A DNA stretch of 64,000 bases from a virus. Its lineage: Duplodnaviria; Caudoviricetes. The stretch lies in IMG/VR virus record IMGVR_UViG_3300033388_005412, positions 128,001 through 192,000 of that record; one strand, written 5' to 3'. The position numbers and the translations under genes were made by a program. A model generated the notes under the pieces. The model was not told the DNA's origin. It saw nothing but the letters and a program-made list of their open reading frames with translations, and searched no databases. This document shows, piece after piece, positions 19,331 through 46,073 of the stretch (its first letter is position 1; every line of letters begins with the position of its first letter).

Positions 19331-21316
19331 ATGGAAATGAAAATGAATGTCATTAGTGACCTGATTGTCGCTGAGTTCCTTTATAAAGGAATTGGCGAAA
19401 AGTTAAGGGAAACGGCGAAATTGAAAGGTGCTGAGAGAAAACATGTAATGGGTAGGAGCCATCACATAAGTTTTCTAAGAAACAGGCCGAATTTAAGAAG
19501 GATATTCGAAAATACCTTTACAATTATGAAGGACAACGGTAGTTATACCGATGATGAATATCTTGATGTTTGTAAGAGGGCCAGGGAATCCGGTTATGTG
19601 CCGCAATGGAATGTTAAACGTGCTCATGGAGGAGGCCAGGGCGCTCATGCATGCGGTAAAATAGAATTCGGTAAATCTCAGATCATAGAAGATATCCTTA
19701 AAGAGGATAATATGCTGGAAGAATTTAGAAATCTTCCTATTGAGAAGAGATTAAATAGAATTCAGAAGCTTATAGGTGAGATGACAAGGTTTAAAACAGA
19801 ACCTAAAGTTAAGATTGGGTTTGCCGCCAAAACATACAATGGTATTGTATGGGCAAAACCGAGCTGGATGAGGCTTAATGGTATCTCAATGGGCGCGAAG
19901 ACCACAAATGTGTTAAAGTCTCTAATTATGCCTCTGGAGGCCTTGGAAGTGACTGATTATGACATGCTTGTGAGTCCGGAGGAAAATAAATTTAACTTAA
20001 GTGAGGAAAAGCTTGGTTGTTTAATCAGGTGGGTTCCAAGATTATCACCTAAATCTTTGTTCAGCAGGAACTTAAGAAGGAAGTTTTCAGATAAGCTTGG
20101 AAGAAATCCCCAGATGAAATGGGATTTATTAAGCTTGGTTAATCATATTCCGGATGTTGACTTGTCACATGAGAGGGATATGTACGAGAAGGGGCTTATC
20201 ACAGAAGAAGATGTAAAGGCTTTATTCGGTTATGAAAAGAATGGAGAAACAGTGATTCGCCCGGTAGGTAAGCGTATCCTGGCCGGGGAGTCTATATTTC
20301 ATCCGGATATATGGGTAGAGCTTGAAAAACCTTTTAAGAAAATGGTTTTGAATAAGCTGCAGCCGAGAATCAAGGGTATTTATGGAGTGGCTATGCCGAA
20401 ATCCATGTTAAAAATGATACCGAATGAGGCGATTTACTATAAAGCATGGGTTACGAGGTATCCCTGGGTTCTTCCTATTCTTACAAAGATAGGTGTATGG
20501 GAAGGTATGATATTTGTTGATGAAGAGTTATGGGAGATGTTTGGTGGTGATTTTGATGGTGATCAGGCAGCTGCATTTGATTGGGATTCTTTGACAACTG
20601 ATCTCTATCTGGATAGGGATAAAGAGTGGCTGAAGAAGGCCATGAAGATGCCTGTTAAAGAGCCGGCTAACTTTGAAGGCAGAACAGAAGAAGAAGTTAT
20701 AGCTAAGCAGCTTAGTCAGTATTCAGGCTGTGGAACTGTGTATAATAATGCTATGACTATAGTGGATGCTGCCAGGGCCGCGGAGTGGAAGTTTAATGAT
20801 CTTGTAAAGCTGCAGGCTTATTTGTATGCTAACATAGTTCAGCCTTTTATAGATGGGTTCAAATATAAAGGCGCCAACCATGTACCAAGTCTGTATGACA
20901 TGGTTACAAGAGTTGATGATAAGTTTGATTATCTTTCTATGAAGGAAACAATGAGACTTCGTGATTTTTATAGAGCAATAAGAAGCCGCGGTAGTTTTAT
21001 GGATTTAACTGATGTGGCTAAACTCGCCAACGCTGATTCTAAAAGCTTTTATGAAAGAGTTGTCTCTATCTTCAAGGGGTGGAAAAGAGGTGATTATATC
21101 CCGGTTCCCGCGCTTGATGAGACCATCGCGAAAACAGTGAAAACCAGTTTTGTGAAGTATGGCCGTAATGTTGAGGCGAGATATGATAGCTTTAACTATT
21201 TGATAACAAGTACTGAAGTACTGAAGGAGGTAATAAGAAATTGTTATGAGAGAAAGGATTACAGTTTGGCTGAGTATTTAGTTGTGAAATTGAATGTTGT
21301 TGCAGAGGAGGTGTAA
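19331..21316 (+). CDS. putative single-chain two-barrel (DPBB) RNA polymerase, copy 1 (661 aa)
   Basis: GAKTTNVLKSLI, VTRYP, MFGGDFDGDQAAAF (motif starts ~20543), PFIDGFK. Confidence 0.75.
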   Translation: MEMKMNVISDLIVAEFLYKGIGEKLRETAKLKGAERKHVMGRSHHISFLRNRPNLRRIFENTFTIMKDNGSYTDDEYLDVCKRARESGYVPQWNVKRAHGGGQGAHACGKIEFGKSQIIEDILKEDNMLEEFRNLPIEKRLNRIQKLIGEMTRFKTEPKVKIGFAAKTYNGIVWAKPSWMRLNGISMGAKTTNVLKSLIMPLEALEVTDYDMLVSPEENKFNLSEEKLGCLIRWVPRLSPKSLFSRNLRRKFSDKLGRNPQMKWDLLSLVNHIPDVDLSHERDMYEKGLITEEDVKALFGYEKNGETVIRPVGKRILAGESIFHPDIWVELEKPFKKMVLNKLQPRIKGIYGVAMPKSMLKMIPNEAIYYKAWVTRYPWVLPILTKIGVWEGMIFVDEELWEMFGGDFDGDQAAAFDWDSLTTDLYLDRDKEWLKKAMKMPVKEPANFEGRTEEEVIAKQLSQYSGCGTVYNNAMTIVDAARAAEWKFNDLVKLQAYLYANIVQPFIDGFKYKGANHVPSLYDMVTRVDDKFDYLSMKETMRLRDFYRAIRSRGSFMDLTDVAKLANADSKSFYERVVSIFKGWKRGDYIPVPALDETIAKTVKTSFVKYGRNVEARYDSFNYLITSTEVLKEVIRNCYERKDYSLAEYLVVKLNVVAEEV

Positions 21317-21317
21317 C

Positions 21318-21854
21318 ATGGATAAAAGACTTTTGATTGGATTAGGTATTATAGGCGGCGCGCTTGGTGTCGTTGCCTATAAAAAGAGAGAAGAGCTTGC
21401 TGTGTTTGGGAAGAAAATGCTGAAAGCGTATATGATAGGCGCCAGACAGCATGAGGAATATATGTATGGTGATCCAGATGCGGCAGTTGGTGATATGCTT
21501 GATGGCGTTGGTGAACTTGCCAGGGCTGATGATAAGTATATCTCACATTTCTTTTCGTTTCATGCGACAGGTGTGACGTTTAAAGATAGACAGGATCTTA
21601 TAAGATATACGAATAAGGACACTGGCTTGCATTTTAAGAAGAATCCTGTTGAAGAAGACAAGAATGCTGTGGCGATTGTGGATGATCATAGTAGAATTCT
21701 TGGTTGGGTTCCTAGAACCATAGCTCCGCATATAGGTGGTAAGATGGACAAGGAGTTGATTAACATAGTGTCATGGAGAAAAGTAGGTGGGGAGAATGAT
21801 TATAAGTATGGTCTTGTTATAACTGTTGATGATAAAACAATTGAATATGCTTAG
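21318..21854 (+). CDS. HIRAN-domain protein with an N-terminal hydrophobic segment
   Basis: GVTFKDRQ...NPVEEDKNAVAI...LGWVPR..A motif; N-terminal LLIGLGIIGGALGVVAY. Confidence 0.7.
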   Translation: MDKRLLIGLGIIGGALGVVAYKKREELAVFGKKMLKAYMIGARQHEEYMYGDPDAAVGDMLDGVGELARADDKYISHFFSFHATGVTFKDRQDLIRYTNKDTGLHFKKNPVEEDKNAVAIVDDHSRILGWVPRTIAPHIGGKMDKELINIVSWRKVGGENDYKYGLVITVDDKTIEYA

Positions 21855-22568
21855 GTGTAGAGAGTTTATTCAAAACCCGGAGGATTCCCATTCTGAATAC
21901 CTCGCCCGGCAGAAGGCCGGGAATATGAAAGAGAAGAATCAGAAACGGACTCTTGTGAAGGGATTACACGTTTTTCCCATGAAAAATTGGCAGAATTACA
22001 CGTTTTTGACAGGAAGAATACAATTTGTTGAAGTAAAGAATGCCCATATAGGGTGAAGGAGATAAGATGAAAACAAGAGAAGTTGAGCTGTTCATTGATG
22101 ATGAACTGATTAATCTGGTGGTTGATGAGCATGATCAAATCATAGCGCCGGAAGAGTACAAAGAAGATTCATTGATTGATCTGATACAGTATGAACATGA
22201 TTATGCGATTGAAATTGGTAGTGTTGAGTGGCTGGAGGGGATACGCAAAGCCAGGAAATTAAAGGCCGCGGCCCAGACTGCGGCATGGAACGATTTGGTC
22301 CCGGAGAACGGCCATCTGAAGAAGGACGGATACATAGGAGGAGCAGATGAAAGAAATTAAAGCATGGGAGACCAGTGATGATATGATTTTCGATTCAAAG
22401 AAAGATGCGAGAATTCATCAGCGGTTTATTGATTTCAAGCGTAGTGCCGAAAACTTTGTTGAGAAACATATGTGTCATGAGAATGATAAAGACGACGTCC
22501 TGAGAATGCTGCTTGAGCATAGACGTGAATTGTATGATATGCTCAAAAAGGCCGAAGATTAATGCAAG

Positions 22569-23120
22569 GACTGAAGCATAGAACGAAGCATGGAACGTCA
22601 TTCCATGCGATCTTCTATGCTGCAGTCGTGCAGTTATGTGATTTTTGGCACATAAATCATGAAAAAGGGTTGATTTACTACTATATATATACTTAACTTA
22701 TAATATATACTAGTAATTTATTATAATATGTTATTATAATAAAGAAACCTAACTAGAATATACATAACAATTATAATAAATCTTATTATAATAAAAAAGC
22801 TTATTAAAAATAGACACTATTATTATAATAAAATATCATAAGTCTATTAATGATATACTAGTATAATACAGTCTATTTAGGACTCATTTGACGAATCTAT
22901 CATCAGAGTCCAGTAGGGGCTACACTTGGACTCATATGATAGCCGCGAGGATACGTTACAGCTAAGAATATAACTGTGCAAATACTATTTAATAGTACTT
23001 TATAGTACTTAATAGTACTTAATAGTATTTGATTCAAATGAAGTTGGCGGAAAAGGGTCTCGCCTACTGCTATATATTGATTTTAAGATGGTACGATATG
23101 GTTCGTTTTCAGCATAAAAG
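22569..23120. other. ~550-bp non-coding region: long hairpin, AT-rich core and 10-bp tandem repeats (candidate origin or control region)
   Basis: Imperfect inverted repeat 22569-22627; repeated TTATAATAA; AATAGTACTT-like x4 at 22991-23030. Confidence 0.6.
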
Positions 23121-23852
23121 GGGTCTTAGGCCTCATTGTGTGATGGAGACAGGAATAGGGGTGTTAAAAGGAGGTTGTTATGAGTGATACACATGATGAT
23201 AATGACAAAACAGCTGGTATTATAAAGAAGCTGAAAGATATTGTCAAAGATAAGGATGAAGAGATAACGCGTAAGAATCATCGTATTGATAGTTATGAGA
23301 TGAAGATCCGCGAACTTGAGAATGAGCTGTACGGGAGGATTGATGAGTAATTTGGAAAAATTCAATATAAATGAGCAATTATACTATCACGGAAACTTTC
23401 TTGAGCTTGATGAATCAATTGCGGAAAAGGTTGATGAGGTAGTTAATCAGGAAATCAATGAAATGTTTGGTGATATTGTGAAGAAAGTGAATAAAATAAT
23501 AGAAGATAGGACTCTTAAAATCAAAGTGGTATGGAAAGATTCGAAATGGGATATTTCAGAAAGGAAAGTCGGCAATCCGGACTGAAAATCGCCGAGGGAG
23601 GTAAAAAGTGCAGATAGAGATTAAAAAAGAACTAGTTAAGAAATTTGAAGACCTGAAAGTGGAAAGAGGGGATGGGTCCCCGGTAGACCTGGGTGATTAT
23701 GTAAATGGAGTCTTATTTAATGATTTAGCAATGGTAAAAGAAATTCTCGATAACAATCCCGGCCGTAAAGATAAATCTCCCGGTAAAGCTGGCGGCCTTG
23801 ATGATCTTCCTTATTAGTCCATTAGTTTGTTGGTTTATTAGCCCATTAGTAT

Positions 23853-23949
23853 TACACTTTAATGTACAGAAGAATGTAAAAGTCTTTGCACTTTGATGTA
23901 CAGAGAAATGTAAAAAATGGTTTACATTTTAATGTACAGAAGAATGTAA
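23853..23949. repeat. three 27-nt direct repeats with 7- and 9-nt spacers
   Basis: TACACTTTAATGTACAGAAGAATGTAA-like copies at 23853, 23887 and 23923. Confidence 0.85.
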
Positions 23950-24317
23950 TTTCTCGACGGTAAAAATAGTAAATATGTTTGTTCCGGTGTGTATAATGAA
24001 ACCAGAGAACAATACAACAATTATCAATATTAATGTTAAATATCAGCGGTAATGATAATCATTAACAATGACATCGATATTGATATTGTTGTAAAGGAGG
24101 AAAAATGGGAGGAATAAATGACACTTAAAAGATGTATTGAGATTGGAAAGGCTTGTGGATTAACAACATTAGGAGAAGCATATGATAATATTGACATACA
24201 TGCCATTAGTTTATTTGGTTATTATGATATCAAAAAGGAACTTACTAAATTAAGAAGTGAAATTCTGAAAAAATATAATCAGACTTCAATCGATAAATGG
24301 ATTGATGATATAAAGAT

Positions 24318-24806
24318 ATGATTTATGTTTTAAACTTCAGGGATATTGTGCCGGCAGGTGTAACGACTGTTAATATTACGAGTCGTTCTACTGGATGGTC
24401 AAGAAAGTTAAGTCCTTTCTTTCTTGGACCTGTTATGATAAATGATAGAAAGTGTATGAATGTTGAAAATGCCTGGCAGTTCTCAAAGGTTTATCCTGAT
24501 CATATTGATAGTAATGGTGATCCTACTGAAGAATACTTTATATGAAGAAATAAAGGATATTCTGATACTTGGGTTCACCGCCGGCCGAAAGGCAGAATGA
24601 AACCTGAGTATGCATGGCTGAATGGAAAAAAGCTGGGATATATTGAGTCAAGAAAACAAATATATATCCCTTTGTATTCTGAAGCTGTTCAGAATGCTTT
24701 GAAAATGTCATGGACTGATGTTGTGAATGATTCATCCAGAATAATGGGACATGGATTTGTTCTGAGTCAAATACTTAGAGAAAAAAGTGGTATTCTATGT
24801 ATATAG
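24318..24806 (+). pseudogene. DUF6939/NADAR-like gene split by an in-frame TGA
   Basis: SPFFLGPV...ENAWQFSKVY and GYIESRKQIYIPLY lie in one frame, separated by TGA at 24543-24545. Confidence 0.6.
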
Positions 24807-26391
24807 ATTTAGGATATCCCTTGAAGGAGAGTTATTAAAATGGAATTTGTAATCGCTCTTATATGGATTTTATTGATTTTTATTCATTTGAAGCTTTATG
24901 ATGTAGACTTGAATGTGAAACGCATATTAAGAGAATTAGAAAGAAATAAGGAGGATGAATGAGTTTCAAAGATGATGTAATGTTAGGATTAGAAAATGGT
25001 CATATCAAAGAAAAAGTTAAATTTTTGCCGGAATGTCAGGGTGACTTACAAGGTGAAAAGTCTAAAACTTATTTTGTATTACCAGACATGGGGAATCCAT
25101 TACAGGACCGAGTATATATTACTCCGGTAAATCGAAAAGAAGGAGAAGAGACTTTTAGATACTCATATTCAAAGAGTTTAAGTTATTCGCCTGTTACAAA
25201 AAAGGATATTAATTCATATAGACAAATGCATTATCCTTTAAGGAGAAATAAATGAGTGTTATTAATTATAAGGATTTAAAAGAACATCTTGGTCATCGAA
25301 TAGTTTGTGTTAGTTATGAAAGTCCCGGAGAAAATAAAGAGAACATTGCACTGGAATGTGAGGATTGTAATGAAGTTCTTTTGGATTTTGATAAAGAGGA
25401 AGTTGCCGATTCTAAGGAGCAGACTGCCGATTTCAAGACGGAATGGTCAATAAAGATAAAAGAAATTACATTAAAAATACGGGGTTGGTTATTTGATGGT
25501 GTTGATGTTCGTGCTATTCTGAATGAAAATGAAAATGATGTTTATTGGCAAATGCACGATTAAGGAGTGAAAAATGACTAAAATATTAATAAATCCGCCA
25601 CCGAAAGATGGCCGTTGTAATTGCTGTGGTAAAAAAGCTAAATTAATTAAAACATTTAGGGCTATGGCCCCGAAAGATGATATCAGAGAAACTCTTATTA
25701 ATGAAGTTGATGACTGGAATAAATTATTTATGCATAATAAAAGATTAGCAGCAGACTTGTCTTTTTATGATCAATTAGTAAATACAGTTGAAGCAAGCTG
25801 GGAATGTAATGATTGTATATCACTAGAAGGTGAAGAGTTTTATAATAAACAAGAAAGTAGAAATGAATAAACCTGAAAAGAAAATTTGCAGTATGTCATA
25901 TACCGCATCAAAAGAAGAGAGTTATAAAAACATAGGATATAATCAAGCTATTGATGATTATGAAAAGTTTCTGCCGACTGAAGATGATTTACGACTTATA
26001 ATCTCTGAATTTACAGGATTTGATAGTGTAAAAGATAAGCTATCTAACATTCTTTCAAAAAGAATAAGAGGTGAAAAATGAGTGATAGAATAACTGTGGC
26101 TAACGGAAAATATACTGTTATTATGTATGATGACGGTAGAATGGAAGCGCTTAGACATGGCGAAAAATGGCAGGAATCTTTAAGCAGTAATTTGATAGGA
26201 ACATTAGCTAATGATTTATTAGAGGCTCGCGCAGAGTCAACGAGATTGACGAAGGCATTAGAAAAGATAAACAAACTATCCGCAAATCCATTAACAAAAA
26301 CAATGGGTAAAGAAAGGATAGATTTATTAAGAGGTATTGCAAAGATATTTGACATTACATTTAAAGAACTTGCCGAATATAAGGAGGATAA

Positions 26392-26922
26392 ATGAAAAAC
26401 AAACAAAATATGTTGTTTAATGGTATAAAATTTTTAATTGCTGATGAGATTAAAAATGATAAATGTGGGGTGCATTTTATAAAAATGTCTAAGTTTTTTA
26501 ATCGTATTAAAATAAAGATATGGCTTGAACGTCCTGGTTTGTTTATCGGGTATCATGGTCGAAAGATAGATGATATTCAGGCAAAAATTGAAGATAATTT
26601 TAAATTAAAAGTAAAATTTGTATTAAAAGATTATGAACCTCTGCCAATAGATTTGAACAGTAATTTGATAATACCATTAGCTAGTGATTTATTAGATGCG
26701 CTTACAGAATCAGCGAAATTGGCGAAGGCATTAAAAAAGTATGGACAACACGATGAGAGTTGTATTGCTTGTCAGTGGCGAGAAGGACGACCGACTGCCG
26801 ATGGAGGATATGAAAGTCTGTTCGGTTATGGAAAAAATGCCAAATGGTATAAGCGTAACGAATATCCAGAATGCACTTGTGGATTTGCCAAAGCACTCGC
26901 AGAATATAAGGAGGATAAATGA
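26392..26922 (+). CDS. protein with a type-II KH domain resembling ribosomal protein uS3 N-terminus, fused to a zinc-ribbon tail
   Basis: IKIWLERPGLFIGYHGRKIDDI versus uS3 [20 protein letters not shown]. Confidence 0.6.
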   Translation: MKNKQNMLFNGIKFLIADEIKNDKCGVHFIKMSKFFNRIKIKIWLERPGLFIGYHGRKIDDIQAKIEDNFKLKVKFVLKDYEPLPIDLNSNLIIPLASDLLDALTESAKLAKALKKYGQHDESCIACQWREGRPTADGGYESLFGYGKNAKWYKRNEYPECTCGFAKALAEYKEDK

Positions 26923-28195
26923 AAATGCCGGATGAATGCTCGAATTGTGATTATGTTAAAGCGTGTTATTGGGAAGAATCCTGGCCGTTATGTATCCGTA
27001 ATCCAAAATCTAACTTAAATTTAGTAGGACAGTTGGCGAAAAGATTGAAGGTTATTGATAAAAATATAACGATTATCTTCATGCCTAATCAGGAAGTTCA
27101 GATAAGTGAAGATGATAATATTCCGACGAATTATGATTTTAGCGATGCGTCTGATAAGGAGGAAAAATGATAAAATCAAAATTGTATAAAGTTGAAAATC
27201 CGGCTGTTGAAGACGGCATTGAAGTATGGTTGGTTGTGGCGAAAACAAGCGTGGAAGCAATGCAGATGGTAAGAAATACATTAAATGAAAAAGCATTAAA
27301 ATATATTGATGAGGCTGGAGGTTTTGATGTAAAAATAATCGAGCCGAAATATGGTATTACTGATTATATCAGCTGGTTTATCCCCGCTGGAGGACCCGGA
27401 GTATAAGGAGGAAAAATGAAAATTGATAAATACATGATGGCGACAAAAGCGATGCATACACTGGGAGATATAAGCAGAGACGTTGAAGATATTTGTTGTA
27501 TTCATGAGGAAAAAGATGATTGTTATATTGGAAGCTGGATCTCGGGTTATGGTTTCATAAATGTTGAATTTCCAAAAGAAACAACCCGCGAACTTACTTC
27601 TGATGAAGTTAAAAAATATAATGGACGTAATTATCAGATTTCTAATCAACCGCCTTTTAAATTGAATATTAAAAATAAGGAGGAAAAATGAGATGGTGTG
27701 ATATGTTCGGCGAATTGTTCTCCGAACCTGTGAAAATTATATGCGATCTTAAAGTTAATGGATCTGTTTACAGTGATAGACTATTCACATGGGATATGAC
27801 AAAACATAATGTCTTATGCGAAAAACATTTCGGCGATGCCGGACAAAAATGGGATGATCGTGATCCAGTTAAAATAGAATTGTTTCTCCAGGATTATCTT
27901 GGGAAAAAATTAAAACTTGTTAAGATTATAAAATCAACAAATGCAAGTACCGGATTTCCGGTATATCAATTCGCATATCATATAGCTGAGGAGGATAAAT
28001 GAAGACTTATAATATTGTAGTTATCAATGGAAAAACAATTTTAGGTACCGTTAAAGGATTAACAAAAAAACAAGTTATGAGAATACTTAATATAACTTCC
28101 ATGGAATTTTACACTTATAAACAATATGGATGTTTTGGATTGATTAAGAAAAAATCCAATTTATTTTTTGGATACAAAATAAAGGAGAATAAAAA

Positions 28196-28621
28196 ATGAA
28201 ATTTAGAGGAAAACGAAAAGATAATGGTGAGCGGGTTAAAGGTGATTTGTTGAGAAATAAAATATCCTTAACTGGAGAAGGTAAAATCAATGGACAAATA
28301 ACTATTGATAATAAAACAACATTCACTGCTATTGTTGATAGTGACGGAGTTTTATACGAAGTCTACCCCGAAAGCGTCGGAATGTCCATACTTCGAAAGG
28401 ATAAACACGGAGTTGAGATATTCGGCTCAATTCCTATTAATGGCAAGATGAGCAGGGGTGGGGATATAATAAAGACGACGGGAAGTATTGACAATATTGA
28501 AACGGCAAAAATAGAATTCAAAAGAGGATGTTTTAAAGATAATTATTATGGATTTTGTTTAAGTGACAACAAAGAATATCAAATAGAAATAATCGGCAAG
28601 CAGTATGAGGAGGATAAGTGA
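28196..28621 (+). CDS. YopX-family protein
   Basis: KFRGKRKDNGE.V.G.L...YEVYPESVG...KDKHG.EIF..GDII...EIIG. Confidence 0.7.
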   Translation: MKFRGKRKDNGERVKGDLLRNKISLTGEGKINGQITIDNKTTFTAIVDSDGVLYEVYPESVGMSILRKDKHGVEIFGSIPINGKMSRGGDIIKTTGSIDNIETAKIEFKRGCFKDNYYGFCLSDNKEYQIEIIGKQYEEDK

Positions 28622-28836
28622 ATATATGTATCATATGTAAGAAAGAATGTGGTAATGGTGGAACAGAATTGGATGGTGTACGATATCCCATACATCTAGA
28701 TTGTTATAAAAATTCTAATGAAGAAATTTTGAGGAAAACAATAGAAAAAAATAAAGAAGATAATTGAATTTTAAAGAATATTTTTTGTTGATTGCCCGAC
28801 GGTCCAAAGACGTTCGGGTTGAAAAAGGAGGTAATC

Positions 28837-29124
28837 ATGAAGATTACAGTCGCTGGTATCAAACCGGCTAAGAAAGAGAAGAATGATGGTACGCCGAATC
28901 CTGTGAAGGCCTATGCTGGTCTGCACCTGGGAACCGAGGAAATGCCTAAGATGTGGGGCATTCACGGTATTAAGGTTGTCAAAGGTAAAAACGGACTGTT
29001 CGTGGCTATGCCTGGTTACAAAAACGGGGATAAGTTTCAGGATCAGGCCCATCCCTTGACTAAAGAAGGAAGAGAAATCGTTACGAATTTGGTGCTTGAT
29101 GCTTTTAAGAAGATAAAAGTGTAA
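28837..29124 (+). CDS. spoVG: SpoVG-family nucleic-acid-binding protein, copy 1
   Basis: VKAYA.L...IHGIKVVKGKNGLFVAMP...FQDQAHPLTKEGR. Confidence 0.85.
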   Translation: MKITVAGIKPAKKEKNDGTPNPVKAYAGLHLGTEEMPKMWGIHGIKVVKGKNGLFVAMPGYKNGDKFQDQAHPLTKEGREIVTNLVLDAFKKIKV

Positions 29125-29145
29125 GTACAGACTGAGGTATAATAT

Positions 29146-29313
29146 GTGGCCGTGGCGCACTGTGAGGCGTTATATCACTGTAAGTTCTGGGGAAGAACTC
29201 TGATCAAGCTCTCCGGACAACTGCAGTGACGAACAAATAAAGGACAAACGGCAATGTTCCTGTCCAACATGGGACTAAGTGAACCGTAGCAGGTAAGAAT
29301 CCTGCCGGCTGCA
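29146..29313 (+). ncRNA. 168-nt tRNA-like RNA: acceptor, D and T arms around a ~110-nt structured insert
   Basis: GUGGCCG/CGGCUGC-A acceptor, GCGC/GCGU D stem, GCAGG-UAAGAAU-CCUGC T arm; TATAAT ends 4 nt upstream. Confidence 0.6.
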
Positions 29314-29497
29314 TATAAAAGGAGATAAATAGATGGAATATATGATTACAGCAAATATTGTGTTAGCTTTAGTTAATGTAACAACTTCTAAAGGCTGGCA
29401 CACGAGATTGGGGTGGATTTGTGCCGCGCTTTATGGCGCGGGATGGTTATTAGCAAGAATACAGTTGGCAAAAATAATGGAACGATGAATAATATAA

Positions 29498-29571: not shown

Positions 29572-29599
29572 CAATGGAATTAAGTAATGAATGTGAATG

Positions 29600-29758
29600 A
29601 TGAAAGCAATGTATATGCGGCTTATGGACGAACTCGGCAGAGAGCCGACGGAAGACGAAATGGGCAACGAAAACGCACGGCTAATTGATAAGGCAAAAGA
29701 CAAAGCCGACGATGAGGCTTTGCAAGAAAAAGCGGAGGCAAGTAATGGGCTATTATGA
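29600..29758 (+). CDS. small protein missed by the ORF track, duplicated at 49739-49879
   Basis: MKAMYMRLMDELGREPT.DEM..ENARLIDKAK near-identical in both copies. Confidence 0.75.
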   Translation: MKAMYMRLMDELGREPTEDEMGNENARLIDKAKDKADDEALQEKAEASNGLL

Positions 29759-33134: not shown

Positions 33135-33434
33135 ATGACTGAAGACATGAAGATTAGTGTTGCGGGTATGAAGTTGGCGAAAAGTGAGAAGAACGATGGA
33201 AGTCCGAATCCCGTAAAGGCTTACGCGGGGCTTCATTTGGGAACTGAAGAAACGCCTGAAATGTGGGGCATTCACGGTATTAAAGTTGTTGAAGGTAAGA
33301 ATGGATTGTTTGTGGCAATGCCGGGATACAAAAATGGAGATAACTTTCAAGATCAAGTACATCCCCTGACTAAAGAAGGAAGGGATATTGTAAATAATTT
33401 AGTGCTTGATGCTTTTAAAAAGATGAGGAAATAA
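33135..33434 (+). CDS. spoVG: SpoVG-family protein, copy 2 (close paralog of copy 1)
   Basis: NPVKAYAGLHLGTEE...WGIHGIKVVEGKNGLFVAMPGYKNGD.FQDQ.HPLTKEGR. Confidence 0.85.
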   Translation: MTEDMKISVAGMKLAKSEKNDGSPNPVKAYAGLHLGTEETPEMWGIHGIKVVEGKNGLFVAMPGYKNGDNFQDQVHPLTKEGRDIVNNLVLDAFKKMRK

Positions 33435-36700: not shown

Positions 36701-37659
36701 AAATTAGAGATGGTAAATTTATGGGTTTCACGAATAATAAACCTGACCATGTGGAAGGATTATGGGGCGGCTTAAGTCCAGCGGAGGCAACAGAAAATGA
36801 AGAAAAGTAAAAGCAATATCAGATCCAAGATAGACAAACTTCTTGATGAATTAGTATCTGTATCAATGAAGCAAGGTATGGATTTGGAAGGCGCAAAAAC
36901 AAATTCACAGAAAATGTCGATAAGTTTTGAAGAATTAAAAGTTATTTGTTTTAATTTAGATAGTTTAAACGACACTTGTGGTATCAATAATAATAGTAAA
37001 TGTAATATTAAAAACTGCCCATATGGAAAAGGTTAAAGTGCAGCACATAAGAGGTAATGAAGAGGATTGTATTTGTCATAAACCGAATGAAAAACACACA
37101 GAACGATGCGACGCATACAGATTATCGGAGTTCTTTAAGAAATGCGCGTCTGTTATGTTGAAACGTCCAAAGCATACAAAGGAGGATAGATGATTTTTAT
37201 TTATTTTATAATAGTAATGATTTGCATATTAATGTTACTATTTTGTATCAGTAAACATTTTGCGAATTTTACAATAATTAAAGATTATATGTACTTTGTT
37301 GATGATTCATATGTTAATTTCGGATTGATGCCGTGGATTGTGAAATATGGCCCATATATATCCATATATTGGATCGGTTCGGAATTAACTATAAGATGGA
37401 GAAAAAAATGAAAGATCAATTCACATATGATTACTGGATGAATGAAGATATAAGTAAAGCGGATATAAAGAAATTTGTGAAGTCAAAACTCTTATGGAAT
37501 ATGGGAAAAATACAGCAGTCTGAAGATGAAATAAACAGATTGATAGCTTTCCAATATGCGGTAAGGGATAAAGGCCTGACTAAACTATTTATAAAATGCC
37601 AAAATGAGATGATGAAAGAATTAAATAAAGAAGAAATGAAAGATTAGAAAGGAGGTTGA

Positions 37660-38019
37660 ATGAATATTGTAATGTATTTTGATGGTAATAAAAACTCGTC
37701 CGGAACATCATGCAGTTACAGACTGCAGGCTGGGAAAATGGTGAGACGAGAAACCATAAAGCTGAGTGATATGACTGTACCGGCCGCCGAATATAATGGT
37801 CTTATAAAAGGTTTAGAAGTACTTAAAAAAGAATTTTATCCTAAGATAGATCTTACCATATACGGTGACAATAAAGTTGTGATTAACCAAGTTGCTCAAA
37901 GATGGGAAACAAAAAAAACTTATTTAAGACAGTACAGAGATGAAGCTCTGAATATATTGGAGAATCTTCATAGTTATAGGATTTTCTGGAAACCGCGCGG
38001 TGAGAATAAAGCGGGATAA
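37660..38019 (+). CDS. ribonuclease HI-like protein
   Basis: MYFDG...AEYNGLIKGL...IYGDNKVVINQV...WKPRGENK.A. Confidence 0.8.
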   Translation: MNIVMYFDGNKNSSGTSCSYRLQAGKMVRRETIKLSDMTVPAAEYNGLIKGLEVLKKEFYPKIDLTIYGDNKVVINQVAQRWETKKTYLRQYRDEALNILENLHSYRIFWKPRGENKAG

Positions 38020-38714
38020 TAGGAGGAAAAATGGGCATGGGTGTAACTGATTTGGAACTATTATGGAATAATATGATAGAAGAAGGTACCACCATAGGAA
38101 ATATAGGGAGATTGTTAAATGAAAAAAGGAACATGGATTACAAAAGATGGCATTGTCAAGAAAATAAAGAATATGACATTAAAACATTTAGAAAATGTTG
38201 AAAAAATGTTAAGCAAAAAAATTTCTTATATGGAAGACAATAAAATTCCGATGATTTCTGACTTTTCGCCGGGTTTATATTATCCTAATTTTATGAATGT
38301 TTTTATTAAAAGAAATGAGATTATAGAGGAAATATGTAAACGTGAATTACATGATATTGGTGAATTAGAAATGATTGAGACATAGGAGGAGAAAAATGAT
38401 TTTTATTCAAAAACTGATTTTTGAGTTGTTATTAAGTTATCCAACATGGTTGATGGTGATTGATATTATATTTACATCAGCTATTGTTATAGCTGCTGGT
38501 TACATTATATTTGCAATAGTGAGGTATAAAAAATGAAATTTAAAGTTCAATGGGAAGAACAGAGGTCTATCATAATCGAGGCCGATACCGCGGATGCCGC
38601 TGAAGAAATGATGATGAATGGCGAATTTGATGGTAAAGACGTCGAATCCGGAGAGTTAACGTCGATGCCTGAAGCGTATGAATTGAAGGATGAAGAAAAA
38701 TTTAGGAGGAAAGA

Positions 38715-39281
38715 ATGAACATTAAAGTAAGAAGAATGGTTCCGCACACAAGCGGAAAGATTAAAGCGTTTGCTGACATAACAATCGGCGATACACTTGT
38801 AAAGGGGTTTAGAGTTGTTGAGGGAACTGGTGGCAAAGATGATTTTATAGGCTTGCCGAGTATTAAAGGCAGTGACGGGAACTGGTATGCTAATTTTAAG
38901 CCCGGCGAAACTCTTATGAAAAGCATAAATGATGTAATTTTCAAATCATATATAGATTTGGAACCACAGACCAACTTGCCGCTTAATGATAAAAAAGCGC
39001 CAAGTGATATAGCAATACTTTCACTTGATGCTGAAAAATCACTGTATAGTGACGCAACGACATTTTATGGAGAACCGGTTAAATATTTCGCTGAGGGAAA
39101 TGTCAAGGCCTATGATTTTATGGGCTATCGTTTCATGAGACAAAATCCTGTTAAAAAGGACAAGGACGGTAATTTGTCAAAATGGGCGCAGATGGTTAAG
39201 GATGGCGATAAAGTAACCTGGGTTGTCCAGGGTGGAGTTTATATTGGGCGTGTCGTAAACTCGGTATATCAGCAGTGCTAG
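38715..39281 (+). CDS. spoVG: SpoVG-family domain fused to a C-terminal extension, copy 3
   Basis: KIKAFADITIGDTLVKGFRVVEG...FIGLPS.K..DG.WY. Confidence 0.75.
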   Translation: MNIKVRRMVPHTSGKIKAFADITIGDTLVKGFRVVEGTGGKDDFIGLPSIKGSDGNWYANFKPGETLMKSINDVIFKSYIDLEPQTNLPLNDKKAPSDIAILSLDAEKSLYSDATTFYGEPVKYFAEGNVKAYDFMGYRFMRQNPVKKDKDGNLSKWAQMVKDGDKVTWVVQGGVYIGRVVNSVYQQC

Positions 39282-39338
39282 TATAATGGAATCGGCTTGA
39301 TTTCGGTTTCCGTATATCAAGTTACATCATTCTGTTAT

Positions 39339-39416
39339 GCGAACGGTGGTGGCGTGGTAGCCTGACATCGTTGAGCTTTCCAAGCTCGGATGTCGCAGAC
39401 CAACTGCCCACCTCGC
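39339..39416 (+). ncRNA. aberrant tRNA-Gly(UCC)-like cloverleaf with an elongated anticodon arm
   Basis: GGUGG/CCACC (+GCGA/UCGC), GGC-GUGGUA-GCC, GACAUC..UGAGC-UU[UCC]AA-GCUCG-GAUGUC, GCAG-ACCAA-CUGC. Confidence 0.55.
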
Positions 39417-40102
39417 ACTGTGAAATAGAATTTGGAGGAAAAAAATTGAAAAGGAGGAAAAATGACTTTACCTAAATTGATTGGAATGAATGCAATCGAA
39501 TTTCAGAAATGGAATGATGAAGGTGATGAGGGGATAAGATCATTAAGTATTCTGTATTATCTGTATATGCTGAATGTTCAATCAAAACAAATTCGCCATG
39601 ACGTTAGAGAGAATAGTGAAAATGTCGAAAATATTTTAAAGATTTTGGACAAATTAGAAATTAAAGCTAAAAGAGAGCCCGTTATGCTGTCTACTGATAA
39701 AATGGATGCGTTAAATAAATTGATAGCAGGAATGGAAAAGATACAATTGAAAATAGGAGGATGAATGTCATTGATAAAAATTAAAGAACCGGATGAGCAA
39801 TGTATGCATCCGGAACATAATCCGCCAATGCATATTTATTTAGAGCCTGGAACATATGAACATACTTGTCCAGCGTGTGGTAAAACTGTGGTTTTTGAAA
39901 TTCCGCAAATTACAATTTAAAGGAGGAAAAATGGAGTATGATGAAGTGAAAATCAGAGTTCCTAAAGTAGGAAAGGGTATTAGTGATATGTCAAAACTGG
40001 TCGCCGTGTCTGTTGCGAATACAATAGGTGTCGGTCTGGCGGTTGTTGCTGACAAACTGATTAATTTTGGTAAAGAAACTGAAAAAGAAGGAGGTGAGAA
40101 AA

Positions 40103-40348
40103 ATGATTAGTGTTAAAAGACTAACGAAACTTAAAGATGCCGAGAACAAAACAAAGGCTATGGTCACGCTTGATACAGGTGATTTCCTTTTGAGCGGCAT
40201 AAGAGTTGTTGACGCTGGGAAGGGCCCGTTTGTGTCCATGCCCCAGAGAAAGGGAACTGATGGTAAGTATTATGATACCATACATCCTACGTCAGACAGA
40301 ATGAAAGAGGATATTAATAACGCGGTTCTCGCGGAATTTAATAAATAA
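40103..40348 (+). CDS. spoVG: SpoVG-family protein, copy 4
   Basis: TKAMVTL...LLSGIRVVDAGKGPFVSMPQRK..DGKYYDTIHP. Confidence 0.85.
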   Translation: MISVKRLTKLKDAENKTKAMVTLDTGDFLLSGIRVVDAGKGPFVSMPQRKGTDGKYYDTIHPTSDRMKEDINNAVLAEFNK

Positions 40349-40356
40349 AAGGTTAT

Positions 40357-40383
40357 GCGGGGGAGAAAGGGTTTCTCCCCCGC
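40357..40383. terminator. perfect 11-bp GC-rich hairpin after spoVG copy 4 (no U tract)
   Basis: GCGGGGGAGAA-AGGGT-TTCTCCCCCGC followed by A-rich sequence. Confidence 0.45.
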
Positions 40384-40996
40384 AATTAAAAAAAAAGGGG
40401 GATGCGATCAAGATTAATCCGATTGAAATTGTTACAACATTAATAATTGAAGGAATAATACTGGGAATAGTTGTCAGTGTATCGAAACCGATAACTAAAT
40501 TAATTGAATCAATTTACACTAGAAAAAAGAAAAAATTATCTGATGATAACGTAGCGGCATGCGCCGTTGTAATAGACAATTAAGGAGAATACAATGAATA
40601 GTTTAAATCCCGTTGAGTCTCTATCAGCTCTTATTGTACAAGGCATTGTATTGGGATGTGTTATTTCAATAGCTATTCCAATAAGCAGATTAATAATGAA
40701 AGCTGAATTTGAAGGATATAAAAAAGTAAAAAAACTGATGAAGAAAGAACAGCTGGCTGTTGGGGGGGCATAATGTTCGATTTTTTGGAACCGCTAATGG
40801 CATTTGATATGCCTAATTTACCGTTTGAAGAATATTGGGAGCATATTTCTGATAAAATAGATCAAGCATATAAAACAGGCATGTATAAAAGCAGATGTTT
40901 CTCTGAACAGGGTGGCGCTGGCAATGAACAGGCCGCAAAAGATTTATTCGATTTACTCAGCACAAAATCAAGTATATTCGGATAAGGAGTTAATTT

Positions 40997-41431
40997 ATGA
41001 TTAAATATATTAATGGTGATTTATTCACTTCAAAAAATTCATTAGCCCATTGCATAAGTAAAGATTTTAAACTAGGTGCCGGCATTGCCAAAACATTTAG
41101 AAGGAAATATATCAAGGAAATTTTAAAAGCAAGAAATGAAATGATTGACATTGAAAAATCGCTTGTTGATGTCGGCAAATGTCTGGTTGCTGATGTCGGC
41201 AGTTGCTATGTTTTTAATCTGATTACAAAAAAGTTTTATTATGAAAAACCAACTCTCAAATCTATGGAATCGGCATTGGAAAATATGTTCGCGAAGGCGG
41301 AAACAATTAATGTTGAGACAATCGCAATGCCCAGAATAGGGTGTGGACTTGACCGATTAAAATGGAACGATGTTGAGAAATTAATTATTAAACACCAGGG
41401 AAATATTGATGTCGCTGTTTATAGTTTATGA
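40997..41431 (+). CDS. macrodomain ADP-ribosylhydrolase, TARG1/DarG-like
   Basis: GDLF...LAHCISKDFKLGAGIAK.F...NLITK..Y..KP...MPRIGCGLDRLKW. Confidence 0.9.
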   Translation: MIKYINGDLFTSKNSLAHCISKDFKLGAGIAKTFRRKYIKEILKARNEMIDIEKSLVDVGKCLVADVGSCYVFNLITKKFYYEKPTLKSMESALENMFAKAETINVETIAMPRIGCGLDRLKWNDVEKLIIKHQGNIDVAVYSL

Positions 41432-41437
41432 AAACAT

Positions 41438-41510
41438 AGGGATGTCGTTCAATTGGACAGGACCGGTGATTTTGAGTCACCTAATCGAGGTTCGAATCCT
41501 TGCATCCCTG
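41438..41510 (+). tRNA. tRNA-Gln(UUG); CCA not encoded
   Basis: AGGGAUG/CAUCCCU, GGUGA-UU[UUG]AG-UCACC, CGAGG-UUCGAAU-CCUUG, G73. Confidence 0.9.
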
Positions 41511-43073
41511 TTTATATCTGATGATGCAAAAGGAGATAAATCATGAATGAAACATATTGTCCAAAATGTAAGAATTCATTGAAAAGTGTTGGATTTACCT
41601 GTGCGGGACAGAGTCTATATCACTGTCCTATCTGTGAGCGCTGGTGGGAAATAAAAGAACTTCCTAATGAAGATGAATCAACAAAATAAGGAGGACGAAT
41701 GAGTATTTGCGAAATATGCGGTAACCGGATAGATAAAGCTACAATGGAAAATTATGGAAATACAATAGGAGTATGTCATAAATGTTTATATAAAGAATTT
41801 ACAGTTGAAACAATAACCCGAGCTGATTTAACTGTATTTATTGGTACAGGTGTAAAGAAATTTACTGATAAGGATATGAAACATCTTGCTATGTTAATAT
41901 GTGATTTCCAAGCCGATGAAGGATCATTTATTGGGATAGAACAAATGACTAAAATTGCTCTTAAGCAAATTAAAAGAAAATTGGTATCGCAAAAGGGGAA
42001 AAAATGAATTGGTTATGTTATATTGGTGGTGGAGTTTTAGTTCTTTTATTGTCATTTTACATAAGTACGTTTTTAGCATCAACATTTGTTGAAAATTATC
42101 ATGAAGAGTTGAAACATTTTAAAATAACATACAGAAAACTTTTTATACTTGGTTCTATGCTGATGTGGATATGGATTTGCTGGACATTTGTATAAGGAGG
42201 AACAATGGCTATAATGGGAATCGTGCTTATAATTGCCGGTCTCATAGCAGCTATATTCTGGGTGGTTGAGCTGTCTATGGGTGTTAAAGCCAGTAAAGAA
42301 ATATTACGGAAAGTTAACGGGAATATATTCCGCGGAATATTGGCATGCCCTAAAATTTTATTATCATTTTCGGCGTTTATCATTGATGTTATAGTAACTA
42401 TGTTCTGTACTACAGTATTTATTATAAGCGCCTCAATTCCCGGCATGGCGATTTCATTGCTGATGTCGGATATTATATCAGTGTGGATTTTGTATGAGTT
42501 TAAGGAGGAAAAATGACAAGTGGTATGATTTATTGGTTAACGAGGTTGGACGGAATTGTGACATTTGCCGCAGTGGTCATGGCGCTTTTTACATTGGCGG
42601 CGATAATATTGGGAATTATTGGTGGTATAGAAAATTCTGAAAATACGAAAAAAGCAGCAAAAAAATGCGGAATTATTGCCGTTATTACGGCTATTATAGG
42701 AACGTTTGTGCCAACATCAAAAGAAATGGCGGCGATTTATTTGATTCCAAAAATAGTAAATAACGAACAAGTTAAAGATGTGCCAAGCAAAGGAATGGAA
42801 ATACTGAATTTAAAACTAGATGGATGGATAGATGATATGAAAGGAATAAAGGGCAAGAAATAATGAAAACAGCAACTTTATTAACTGATTATACGATAGA
42901 AAAAGAAGATTTTACTATAACAATAATACCGAAAGGAACTGTTTTATACGAGTGTTATGATGGTGGTGGATTTTCAACCGTCGGCGATGGTGAGATAAAA
43001 AGTGATTATTTAATGACAATAGGACGTGTTTATGTTAACAACAATCCGCATGTGTTTTCAATGGGAGAAACAA

Positions 43074-43586
43074 ATGGATAAAGATGAAAAAATTGAATAT
43101 TTAAATGACCAAGTGGTTGATTATCAACACGAGGTTCACATGCTTAAAGAGAAAATAAAAAAAATGGTTAAAACATTATCTGAAAAAGGATTAAAAGTCA
43201 GTAAAAAAAGATTCAATAATAACGGAGACGGCACGGTGACAGACACGACAACGGGACTGGTGTGGTTGCGTGATCCTGCCGATTACAACGTTAAGCCACA
43301 GGAATGGCAAGAGGCAATTGACGGGTGTAAAAATTTTAGTTTTGCTGGATACAAAGACTGGCGACTGCCAGCGGCGCAGGAATTGTTTAACATAGTGGAT
43401 TTTACGAAGAAAAAGTATCCGCTGATTAACGACGTGTTCATTTGTCCTGAATACACTTATTGGACAACGCAGGAATATGTGTCACATACTATTTACGCTA
43501 TGCTTATGTATTTTAATACCGGTGGCGCGACCTACTACAATAAGACTAATGCGTTTTTTGTTCGTCCGGTGCGAGGAGATTTGTGA
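43074..43586 (+). CDS. DUF1566 (Lcl C-terminal-like) domain protein with N-terminal coiled coil
   Basis: RFNNNGDGTVTDTTTGLVW...DWRLP...EL...YWT...VRPVR. Confidence 0.85.
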   Translation: MDKDEKIEYLNDQVVDYQHEVHMLKEKIKKMVKTLSEKGLKVSKKRFNNNGDGTVTDTTTGLVWLRDPADYNVKPQEWQEAIDGCKNFSFAGYKDWRLPAAQELFNIVDFTKKKYPLINDVFICPEYTYWTTQEYVSHTIYAMLMYFNTGGATYYNKTNAFFVRPVRGDL

Positions 43587-44126
43587 AATGGGTGAATACG
43601 CTGATGAATTAATTTTTAATGGATTTAGTGATATGGGAGCATCAGATTATTGCGAACAAATACCGTTTGTTATTAACCCATTTTATCGCAAACCAAGAAA
43701 AGCCAAATATGAATATAAAAAAATAGTCAGACAAACTGATAAGGCCTGGCTTATCGAATTTTCTGGTGGTGCCAAAAAATGGTTACCAAAAAGTAAATGT
43801 GATATAGATAAAAAATTTATTTATATTCCAGAATGGCTCGAAAGAAGAATAATTATGATAGAATTACGTAATGAATTACGACGTGGATATATTTGAAAAA
43901 TAAATAAGGAGGTGGAATGTCTAAAACATTAAACTGGATAAGGAAGAAAATTCATTGTCCTTATTGCTGGGACATAATAAATATTAATATTGATATTTGC
44001 CAGGAACCTTTGGCATATAATGAAAAAATAACAGGAGGTGAACGCACATGTCCGAATTGTAAAAGAATAATAACTGATCAGAACCTAAAGCATTGTCATT
44101 TTATCGAAGAATAATAGGGAGAGCGC

Positions 44127-46073
44127 ATGAAAATAATATCAAATTTAATAATTCCTGAATTCATATGTGAAGACGGTATATTGACAAGTTATGAGAAATT
44201 ACATCCGAAAATAAAACAGGATGTGAGAAAACACTGTCAGCATGTAAGTGTACTGACTTACAGACCGTATATGCGCCGAATTTTAGATAATTCATTTACT
44301 GTAATGAAATTCGGAGGATCATTTATCGGCGATGAATATTTAGAATTAGTAAAGAAAGCTAAAACTAAAGGATACATAGCACAATGGAATGTCAAGAGAA
44401 CACATGGCGGCGGCCGAGGTGCTAAATCGTGGGGCAAAATAGAATTTGCCAGAACACAGATTATAGAAGATATCGTTAAAGAACTGGGTTTTCATGAAGA
44501 ATTCATGAGATTACCGATGGGTAAAAGAATGAACCGCATACAGAAAATAATAGGCGAAATGCACGATTTTCAGATAAAGCCCAGAGTTAAAATAGTTGGC
44601 GATATGGACAAATTCGAGGGATTGCTTTTCGGACGCATAAAATGGATGAGGAAAAATGGAATTGAGCCGGGTGCTAAAACAACTTTAGCAACTAAGGGGC
44701 TTATATTCCCGACGCCAAAACATATTAAATGTGATGCTGACTTACTTGTTCCTGCAGGCGAGAATAAATTCGGCTTAAATGAGGAAAAGTTATCCGAATT
44801 AATAAAATGGATACCAAGATTAACGCCGGGATCACTATTCAGTAGAAATCTTAGACGGAAAAATTCAGATATCCTAGGACGAAATCCGCAGGCAAAATGG
44901 GACCTTCAGGCATTTCTTGATTTTATACCTGAAACTGATTTAACGGAACATAAAGCTGTGTTTGAAGGTAAATTAATGAATGATAAAATTGTCGATACAT
45001 TATTCGGATATAAACAAAAAGGTGAAAAGAAATTAAGATTTCATGGTATGCGGTTGAAGGCCAAAGAATCATTATTTCATCCTGAAGTATGGAATGAGGC
45101 AGTTAAAACATTAGAAAAATGGATTAGCAAATCAATGCAGCCTGAAGTAAAAGGGCTTTATGGTGTTGTTATGCCGATAAGTCTGTTGAAAATTATAAAT
45201 GAAGAGAGCCATGAATTTGAGGCGTATGTTACAAGGTTTCCATGGGTTACGCCGATAAGAACAAAAATAGCATTATGGAAAGATATAATATTTGTTCCGG
45301 ATGATTTATGGAAAGCATTCGGCGGAGATTATGATGGTGACCAAGGGGCCGCGTTTTATAAACATACTATGAATACAGGATTATTATGGAAACGTGACAA
45401 AGAATGGCTTAAGCGTATAATGACACTTCCTGAGAAAGAAGATGATGCTTCAAATAAAAGTGAAGATGAAGTTATCGCGATACAACTTGATCAGTACGCA
45501 TATTGCGGACGTATTTATAATAGTGGAAAGATTGTTGTTGACGCGGCGAGAATGGAAGGTTGGGGCCAAAGAGAAATCCAGGAACTGGACATGAAAATAG
45601 CAGCAACTGATGTTCAGCCGTATATAGACGGCTTTAAATATAAAGCCGGTGTAAAACCCTTGAGTGTTTATGAACTTGCTGATAAATATTGTGTGTCAAA
45701 AAAATGTGTTGGCAAAGTGAAAACATATTTTAACGCATTAAGAGGCAGCAAAAGCGGAATAGAACTTGTGGTTGCTCTCTCGAAATTCGCACATCCGGAA
45801 AGTAAAAGTTTCTATGAAAGAATTGTCAGCAAATTTAAAGAATTCCGTAAAGGTGATTATAAGGAAGTTAACAAAATTCCTATTGATATGGAAAAGGCGA
45901 TTAAATATAGTTATGTTAAACACAGAGATGACTTGGACTCAAGATATTTAAGTTTTGAAAAATATTTAAAAACCAATGAACTTATTAACGGCGCTATAAG
46001 AAATTGTTTTGACAGGCGGGATGTCAGAATGGCAAGATTTATACACGAAAAGAAAGAACTTGAAAAATCATAA
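44127..46073 (+). CDS. putative single-chain two-barrel (DPBB) RNA polymerase, copy 2 (648 aa)
   Basis: GAKTTLATKGLI, VTRFP, AFGGDYDGDQGAAF (motif starts ~45321), PYIDGFK; colinear with 19331-21316 over the full length. Confidence 0.75.
   Translation: MKIISNLIIPEFICEDGILTSYEKLHPKIKQDVRKHCQHVSVLTYRPYMRRILDNSFTVMKFGGSFIGDEYLELVKKAKTKGYIAQWNVKRTHGGGRGAKSWGKIEFARTQIIEDIVKELGFHEEFMRLPMGKRMNRIQKIIGEMHDFQIKPRVKIVGDMDKFEGLLFGRIKWMRKNGIEPGAKTTLATKGLIFPTPKHIKCDADLLVPAGENKFGLNEEKLSELIKWIPRLTPGSLFSRNLRRKNSDILGRNPQAKWDLQAFLDFIPETDLTEHKAVFEGKLMNDKIVDTLFGYKQKGEKKLRFHGMRLKAKESLFHPEVWNEAVKTLEKWISKSMQPEVKGLYGVVMPISLLKIINEESHEFEAYVTRFPWVTPIRTKIALWKDIIFVPDDLWKAFGGDYDGDQGAAFYKHTMNTGLLWKRDKEWLKRIMTLPEKEDDASNKSEDEVIAIQLDQYAYCGRIYNSGKIVVDAARMEGWGQREIQELDMKIAATDVQPYIDGFKYKAGVKPLSVYELADKYCVSKKCVGKVKTYFNALRGSKSGIELVVALSKFAHPESKSFYERIVSKFKEFRKGDYKEVNKIPIDMEKAIKYSYVKHRDDLDSRYLSFEKYLKTNELINGAIRNCFDRRDVRMARFIHEKKELEKS

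Follow-up and report, generated by a model that had tools for sequence, protein, structure and literature searches.

Two paralogous genes for compact single-chain two-barrel RNA polymerase-like enzymes in an uncultured contractile-tailed phage

What does a phage do with two genes for single-chain RNA polymerase-like enzymes? This question is raised by a stretch of 64,000 nucleotides (nt) of a member of the Caudoviricetes, which corresponds to bases 128001-192000 of the 203,294-bp IMG/VR phage record IMGVR_UViG_3300033388_005412 (terminal repeats, 34.8% GC) and is called the window in the following. Two of its open reading frames (ORFs), copy 1 and copy 2 (Table 1), belong to a rare sequence family that lacks annotation and falls into the known class of compact phage polymerases with two barrels in a single subunit, and the phage keeps them as a pair. 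BLASTP aligned the two proteins colinearly from the N-terminus to about residue 650 with 297/648 identities (46%), 66% positives and E = 0.0, and therefore the resemblance is not due to chance. Both contain the motifs G-A-K-x5-K-[SG]-L-I, T-R-[YF]-P, GGD[FY]DGDQ and IDGFK in this order, and ORF calls and alignment confirm the colinear paralogs with all four motifs that a first-pass annotation of the window had described. The barrel lysines are spaced K-x5-K in both copies, compared to K-x7-K given for the beta subunit of RNA polymerase (RNAP). Both copies also pass the two-barrel filter of Chaban et al., [RK]xPx{20,100}DxDxD, as copy 1 has R376-Y-P378 ahead of D407-F-D-G-D411 and copy 2 has R370-F-P ahead of D401-Y-D-G-D405.

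The predicted fold points to the same class of enzymes. Using the family alignment as input, AlphaFold2 (AF2) produced a model of copy 1 with a mean predicted local distance difference test (pLDDT) score of 94.3 and a predicted template modelling (pTM) score of 0.89. A Foldseek search of the PDB with this model returned 22 matches at or near E 1e-3, and all 22 are two-barrel RNA polymerases: maize and Arabidopsis RDR2, QDE-1, gp62 of phage P74-26 and gp64 of phage P23-45. VIA-align scored the model against RDR2 with Z 14.0 (456 aligned residues), gp62 with Z 13.1 (421), gp64 with Z 12.8 (395) and QDE-1 with Z of about 11, and the alignment to the solved RNAPs spans both barrels. Among the Swiss-Prot models YonO was the best match (E 1.4e-7, TM score 0.47, residues 60-655 versus 113-787), followed by plant and fungal RNA-dependent RNA polymerases (RdRPs) and the Kluyveromyces killer-plasmid RNAP. 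The comparison with YonO and QDE-1 by AlphaFold and Foldseek, which had been proposed as a check, matched both, with two-barrel polymerases as the only PDB matches at or near that E value. BFVD returned gp64 and metagenomic phage proteins labelled RdRP, and in the ESM Atlas the clusters most similar in shape have 719 and 660 amino acids (aa), with TM scores of 0.63/0.59 over 547 residues and 0.59/0.59 over 505; they are labelled "RdRP domain" and come from bacteria, mostly Cyanobacteria. The language-model neighbours of the window proteins are viral clusters carrying PF05183.

In each chain, a beta-type barrel holds the lysine pair and a beta-prime-type barrel holds RxP and DxDGD; a long helix and a conserved D..K loop come after them. 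Taken alone, the first barrel of copy 1 matched domains with a double-psi beta-barrel (DPBB) fold, the p97 N-domain and designed DPBBs, with VIA Z scores of 8.3-9.0 and a root-mean-square deviation of 2.3-2.9 Å over 77-83 residues, and in the second barrel the model places strands at residues 349-356, 368-375, 383-390, 393-396 and 412-417. A profile comparison with hhalign aligned residues 372-513 of the family to residues 297-421 of gp64 (E 1.1e-4, probability 57%), pairing GGDFDGD with GADYDGD, VQPFIDGFK with IQVAVDRQK (VDRQK) and the long helix with the gp64 helix GrvevNtrrllDaA; for the N-terminal half no hhalign profile alignment to gp64 was obtained. Because of their position after the second barrel, we infer that helix 453-483 and the D..K region of copy 1 are the bridge helix and the trigger-loop region. 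Judged by the global superposition on solved RNAPs, the catalytic Asp and Lys residues would converge on one active site. The view that both ORFs encode single-chain two-barrel polymerases with intact catalytic motifs, as suggested in the first-pass annotation, is thus supported; the fold of the copy 1 model, the structural matches, the profile alignment to gp64 and the invariance of the catalytic Asp in 49 homologs all agree with it.

At the sequence level the family is rare. When 5.8 billion proteins were searched by word index, 8-9 relatives were recovered for each copy. An exhaustive search of 1.84 billion cluster representatives with the family profile yielded 64 family clusters, whose named sources are all metagenomic. 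None of the 10 family clusters looked up had an informative name, one giant protein carrying an automatic multi-domain label only. Neither copy had a match in Pfam or PHROGs, PF05183 (the Pfam RdRP family) did not appear in hmmscan of either copy at E <= 1, nothing relevant was found among PDB sequences by phmmer or profile search, and 50,697 GenBank phage records gave zero matches by megablast and tblastn. No sequencing runs were listed for copy 1. Newness of the family is judged against Pfam, PHROGs, the PDB and the GenBank phages, not against the alignments of the 23 families of Drobysheva 2021/Chaban 2024. In the alignment of 49 full-length members G171, K190, G352, D407, D409, D411, G468 and K511 are invariant and K196, D211, K220 and Y301 are conserved to at least 90%; in the long helix N472, D479, A481 and R482 are invariant in the 10 closest relatives. 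One member lies on the 28-kb contig PWMF01000220.1 (L011 / L007), which is binned as a Natrialbaceae archaeon metagenome-assembled genome and carries genes for Sigma70_r4, SpoVG and SLT as well; the contig probably belongs to a bacterial phage and was misbinned.

A comparison with characterised systems shows how much of this is new. The crystal structures of P23-45 gp64 (616 aa) are known, and in assays the enzyme elongates RNA on an RNA-DNA scaffold; virions do not contain it, its targets are the early genes and part of the middle genes, and it is itself expressed by the tape-measure-fused virion RNAP gp96 (PMC10770324). In addition, Chaban et al. (2024; PMC10770324) report two two-barrel RNAPs for many viral genomes and list siphoviruses of non-jumbo size that have two copies of the single-subunit type. 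RdRP-like two-barrel proteins of 563-743 aa are present in AFDB and BFVD. The first-pass annotation had regarded the window enzymes as minimal and the known single-chain phage enzymes as longer, which is contradicted by the crystallized and assayed gp64 and by RdRP-like proteins of 563-719 aa in BFVD, AFDB and the ESM Atlas. The published sizes and pairs, together with the RdRP-like clusters, therefore reduce the novelty to a new sequence family of a known kind: "possibly undescribed" is appropriate for a rare family lacking Pfam, PHROG and PDB sequence matches, but not for the kind of enzyme, its size or its occurrence in pairs.

The closest parallels are gp64 and gp62 (PDB 8F72, 8F5M), which like the window copies are single-chain phage two-barrel RNAPs of about 600 aa, but share only 14% identity and no similarity at the level of hidden Markov models with them. 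The window phage has two paralogs instead of one, a mesophilic AT-rich genome and a contractile tail, and its copies are predicted enzymes, whereas gp64 has been characterised biochemically. In RefSeq NC_009803 gp64 (P23p64; L012 35290-37140) is still labelled "head protein". YonO of the Bacillus prophage SPbeta (O31945; Forrest et al., 2017; PMC5467207) is likewise a single-chain two-barrel RNAP of a Firmicutes phage, but has 839 aa, 10% identity and no sequence-level match to the window copies. QDE-1 and RDR2 (PF05183), the top PDB matches (Z 11-14, 455-535 aligned residues), have the GGDxDGD-type metal loop in common with the family; they differ in their size of 900-1400 aa, in additional head and slab domains and in the use of RNA templates in silencing. 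Nearest in shape and size are the compact cyanobacterial and bacterial RdRP clusters (660-719 aa), for which RNase H fusions have been reported, as they are seen in relatives of the family, but these clusters are mostly chromosomal elements of Cyanobacteria and not of large phages. As they are missing from the 64 profile-search matches, they are separate sequence families, and probably represent the RdRP-like elements of Iyer and Aravind 2011.

Both polymerase copies are under strong purifying selection. A closely related phage (JGI sample 3300033145) keeps both genes, with P0001 as the counterpart of copy 1 (92% identity) and P0069 as that of copy 2 (90%). By the Nei-Gojobori method the ratio of nonsynonymous to synonymous substitution rates (dN/dS) is 0.079 for copy 1 against its 92%-identical ortholog (457 codons) and 0.065 for copy 2 against the 90%-identical one in L008 (645 codons); for the small gene that lies downstream of copy 1 the same comparison gave 0.24. 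A maximum-likelihood tree unites copy 1 with P0002/P0003 in a clade (support 98/94) that excludes copy 2, and therefore the duplication, or the acquisition of the second copy, predates that split: the two copies diverged before the phage lineage separated from its nearest relatives. The viral contig IMGVR_UViG_3300037067_018538 also has two members, which are far more deeply diverged and fall into different clades, and thus pairs recur in the family. A third copy has left scrambled remnants in three short ORFs immediately upstream of copy 1, which keep neither the K190/K196 lysine motif nor the DxDGD barrel. These ORFs have good ribosome-binding sites, and the 81-aa piece is a cluster representative of its own (P0063).

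The arrangement of the genome is of importance for the possible function of the pair. The phage is contractile-tailed and uncultured, and its virion module (large terminase, portal, major head protein, tail sheath) is located on the minus strand at about 52-142 kb and is followed by three giant ORFs of 2851, 2103 and 2288 aa. Both polymerase genes lie outside this structural module, which fits a non-virion role, and are part of an array of packed, mostly small plus-strand ORFs that begins at about 14.5 kb of the window, reaches the end of the record and carries on from base 1 into the genes for replication; they are 5 kb and 30 kb away from the array start. This co-directional small-ORF array houses both genes, and homologs in other contigs are found in a similar setting, which speaks for the following interpretation. 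By analogy to gp64 and YonO, from which the assumed template, product and division of labour are taken, the two ORFs probably encode non-virion DNA-dependent RNA polymerases (DdRPs) with different promoter or temporal specificity. As active single-subunit members of the QDE-1/YonO/P23-45 gp64 clade, both copies would transcribe phage genes independently of the host enzyme, and the paralogs probably read different promoter sets or temporal classes in the early-type array. A weak sigma-like protein might redirect the host enzyme, while an injected polymerase could start the transcription cascade.

A candidate for such an injected enzyme is the 2103-aa protein of the tail module, the only other ORF of the genome that fits [RK]xP...GGDxDGD. 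It contains a beta-like GMKVLVKGLTKG at position 993, RFP at 1635 and GGDSDGDE at 1671. We consider it plausible from these motifs that it is a virion RNAP analogous to gp96, and a giant tail-module protein with RNAP motifs would be a further feature shared with P23-45. The protein has one known ortholog, P0082 (57% identity from end to end, 53% within the searched region), and zero matches in PHROGs.

Several observations weigh against this transcriptional scheme. Only the second-barrel segment of the 2103-aa protein could be linked to the family, and weakly (hhalign E 5e-4 to 1.2e-3); its first barrel gave a non-significant E value of 0.16, and an AF2 prediction of residues 740-1900 from a two-sequence alignment reached a pLDDT of 29.6. 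Neither polymerase gene has its own upstream intergenic region, both being embedded in operon-like arrays. Furthermore, a conserved phage-specific promoter motif was not found by k-mer enrichment, repeat search or expectation maximization (EM): 8-mer enrichment in 96 upstream regions recovered the Shine-Dalgarno sequence only, EM returned low-information motifs only, and genome scans with local repeats detected local copies only and no promoter class tied to either polymerase. A division of promoter sets between the copies is therefore unsupported by the sequence. The host-type promoters mentioned in the first-pass annotation are weakly supported, with 100 sigma-70-like matches compared to 77 +/- 8.3 in shuffled sequences, a modest excess.

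The strongest hint against a purely transcriptional role comes from fused relatives, which point toward functions on RNA-DNA hybrids or in replication. The full family module with GAK..K, ENK, RxP, GGDFDGD and VQP...K (D..K-type) is present in three independent metagenomic giants (loci L016, L017): after a PIF1-type superfamily 1 (SF1) helicase in P0072 (1811 aa), before RNase H in P0074 (1856 aa), and together with PIF1, DUF1848 and RNase H in P0058 (2501 aa). A 687-aa protein beside P0072 was rejected as a family member, since it is PcfJ-like. RNase H genes are also located near stand-alone homologs in two contigs, and copy 1 is followed by a weak HIRAN-like ORF. According to Aravind et al. 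2012, citing Iyer and Aravind 2011, RdRP-like enzymes occur in Firmicutes phages and selfish elements, some of them fused to RNase H, and a role as primase was proposed (PMC3417536). The main rival to the transcriptase interpretation is that the window enzymes synthesize primers or origin R-loops on phage DNA, which would be processed by RNase H and extended by the phage's family-B DNA polymerase. We regard such a replication role as possible, yet rather unlikely, because the phage has a canonical DnaG-Toprim/DnaB primase-helicase, PolB and RecA of its own, the window copies are without a helicase or RNase H domain, and the characterised relatives gp64 and YonO are transcriptases; a function as lagging-strand primase in particular is unlikely given the DnaG-DnaB fusion. 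The primase alternative mentioned in the first-pass annotation accordingly draws on the PIF1 and RNase H fusions of the relatives, but is opposed by the phage's own DnaG-DnaB. More far-reaching, and in our opinion doubtful, is the idea that the family as a whole is not a general transcriptase but a helicase/RNase H-coupled primer or R-loop synthase that starts phage replication, with the paralogs serving different origins or stages. If true, it would confirm the Iyer-Aravind proposal and establish a new enzyme class in replication initiation.

The other alternative named there, that one or both copies act as RdRP like QDE-1 and RDR2 and copy phage or host RNAs, is improbable to a high degree. 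Eukaryotic RdRPs are indeed among the best structural matches, with RDR2 at the top, but structural similarity is blind to the type of template, and gp62/gp64 and YonO score about equally. No bacterial or phage member of the clade is known to work as an RdRP in vivo, and partners for RNA silencing are not present. The dual DdRP and RdRP activity of QDE-1 (PMC9508822) is in favour of this option. Finally, the decay of the third copy indicates that the lineage gains and loses copies, but it is hardly credible that only one of the two genes works, with the other being a decaying or superfluous duplicate or a regulator without catalytic activity, as every invariant residue is kept in both, dN/dS is below 0.08 for both against the orthologs of a phage that also retains the pair, and the duplication is older than the split from P0002/P0003.

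In the favoured interpretation, two diverged non-virion DdRPs would work next to the host RNAP, which the sigma-like protein may redirect, and possibly downstream of an injected polymerase. The first-pass annotation had listed a phage sigma factor; what can be found is a faint similarity in a 228-aa ORF downstream of copy 2 (PHROG sigma factor, E 5e-4), whereas Pfam Sigma70_r4 stayed below the cut-off (E 0.028). The region-4-like helix-turn-helix of this divergent protein aligns with the Sigma70_r4 protein of locus L007. In other contigs, family homologs are located in the same type of array, and genes for Sigma70_r4 proteins, SpoVG or RNase H are close by. Around and between the polymerase genes the window contains three SpoVG-domain genes, the first two of which share a 279-nt repeat (80% identity), as well as a macro-domain protein, a tRNA-Gln and a YopX-family gene. 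The YopX family is named after a protein of SPbeta, the prophage of YonO, and this gene and the three SpoVG genes can be counted among the parallels to that system. Strong AAGGAGG ribosome-binding sites suggest a Firmicutes-like host, at the level of a candidate.

The intergenic gaps of the array contain several repeats. The first two gaps share a 53-nt repeat (15080-15132 and 15407-15459, 81% identity), which is absent from the rest of the genome and could be a regulatory site or an early promoter. In a 300-nt gap, three 28-nt repeats TTACACTTTAATGTACAGAAGAATGTAA lie in tandem with a spacing of 34-36 (window 23852-23949); they are unique in the genome and look like a putative operator or iteron. 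The gap after the copy 1 operon has two tandem AT-rich units of 52 nt, each with the palindrome TTATTATAATAA (window 22728-22831). Two small ORFs separated by 20 kb resemble each other at their start in a 99-nt stretch (29600-29698 and 49739-49837, 88% identity), which points to a small family of paralogs within the early array. On the minus strand, the arm that precedes the array encodes a RecD2-like helicase, RNA ligases and an RlaP-type protein. An RNA-repair-like set at window positions 1588-3291, 5576-6586, 6747-7438 and 11963-13018 includes an RlaP-type nucleotidyltransferase, a T4 Rnl1-like RNA ligase and three tRNAs (Thr, Met, Leu); a 567-aa ORF listed with it has a weak intein-splicing match, and a CCA-adding/polyA polymerase and a second RNA ligase are encoded elsewhere in the phage genome.

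Table 1. Positions of the two polymerase-like genes, their motifs and other features (window coordinates unless stated otherwise).
Feature	Position	Strand	Basis or remark
Copy 1, 661-aa single-chain two-barrel RNA polymerase-like enzyme	19331..21316	+	ORF, AF2 model, fold matches
Copy 1, predicted first barrel, beta/Rpb2-type DPBB (residues ~151-237)	19781..20041	+	holds K190, K196
Copy 1, lysine motif GAKTTNVLKSLI (G188-I199)	19892-19927	+	holds K190, K196
Copy 1, predicted second barrel, beta-prime/Rpb1-type DPBB (residues ~349-417)	20375..20581	+	TRYP and GGDFDGDQ
Copy 1, TRYP (residues 375-378)	20453-20464	+	
Copy 1, GGDFDGDQ (residues 405-412)	20543-20566	+	
Copy 1, long helix 453-483 (bridge-helix position) and VQPFIDGFK motif	20687..20863	+	model secondary structure, conservation, gp64 alignment
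Copy 1, IDGFK (residues 507-511)	20849-20863	+	within VQPFIDGFK; K511 invariant
Copy 2, 648-aa paralog of copy 1	44127..46073	+	ORF, 46% identity to copy 1
Copy 2, lysine motif GAKTTLATKGLI (residues 182-193)	44670-44705	+	
Copy 2, TRFP (R370-F-P)		+	motif scan; upstream of D401-Y-D-G-D405
Copy 2, GGDYDGDQ (residues 399-406)	45321-45344	+	
Copy 2, IDGFK (residues 500-504)	45624-45638	+	
Third-copy remnants, scrambled, three short ORFs	17311..18125	+	own-genome profile search, BLASTP, tblastn
Remnant	17332-17523	+	resembles copy 1 aa 119-185, 39%
Remnant	17653-17886	+	resembles copy 2 aa 1-79, 44%
Remnant	17961-18107	+	resembles copy 1 aa 265-302
2103-aa tail-module ORF	genome 90671-96982 (L005:7094-13402), outside the window	-	between two giant ORFs, downstream of tail sheath
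Divergent sigma-like protein, 228 aa	46848..47534	+	weak assignment; 0.8 kb downstream of copy 2
SpoVG-domain gene	28837-29124		Pfam E 7e-15
SpoVG-domain gene	33135-33434		Pfam E 2e-14
SpoVG-domain gene	38715-39281		Pfam E 2e-7

Nothing is overturned by the pair, as compact enzymes of this kind and phages with two of them have already been published. The universal transcription enzyme has its smallest relatives in the single-chain two-barrel polymerases, which are used to reason about the origins of RNAP and of the eukaryotic RNA interference polymerases. To these the family adds a well-modelled example of about 650 aa with a clean signature (K-x5-K, RxP, GGD[FY]DGD, IDGFK). The helicase and RNase H fusions of its relatives make the question of transcription versus priming testable, and the diverged natural pair lets one ask how a small scaffold encodes promoter or template specificity.

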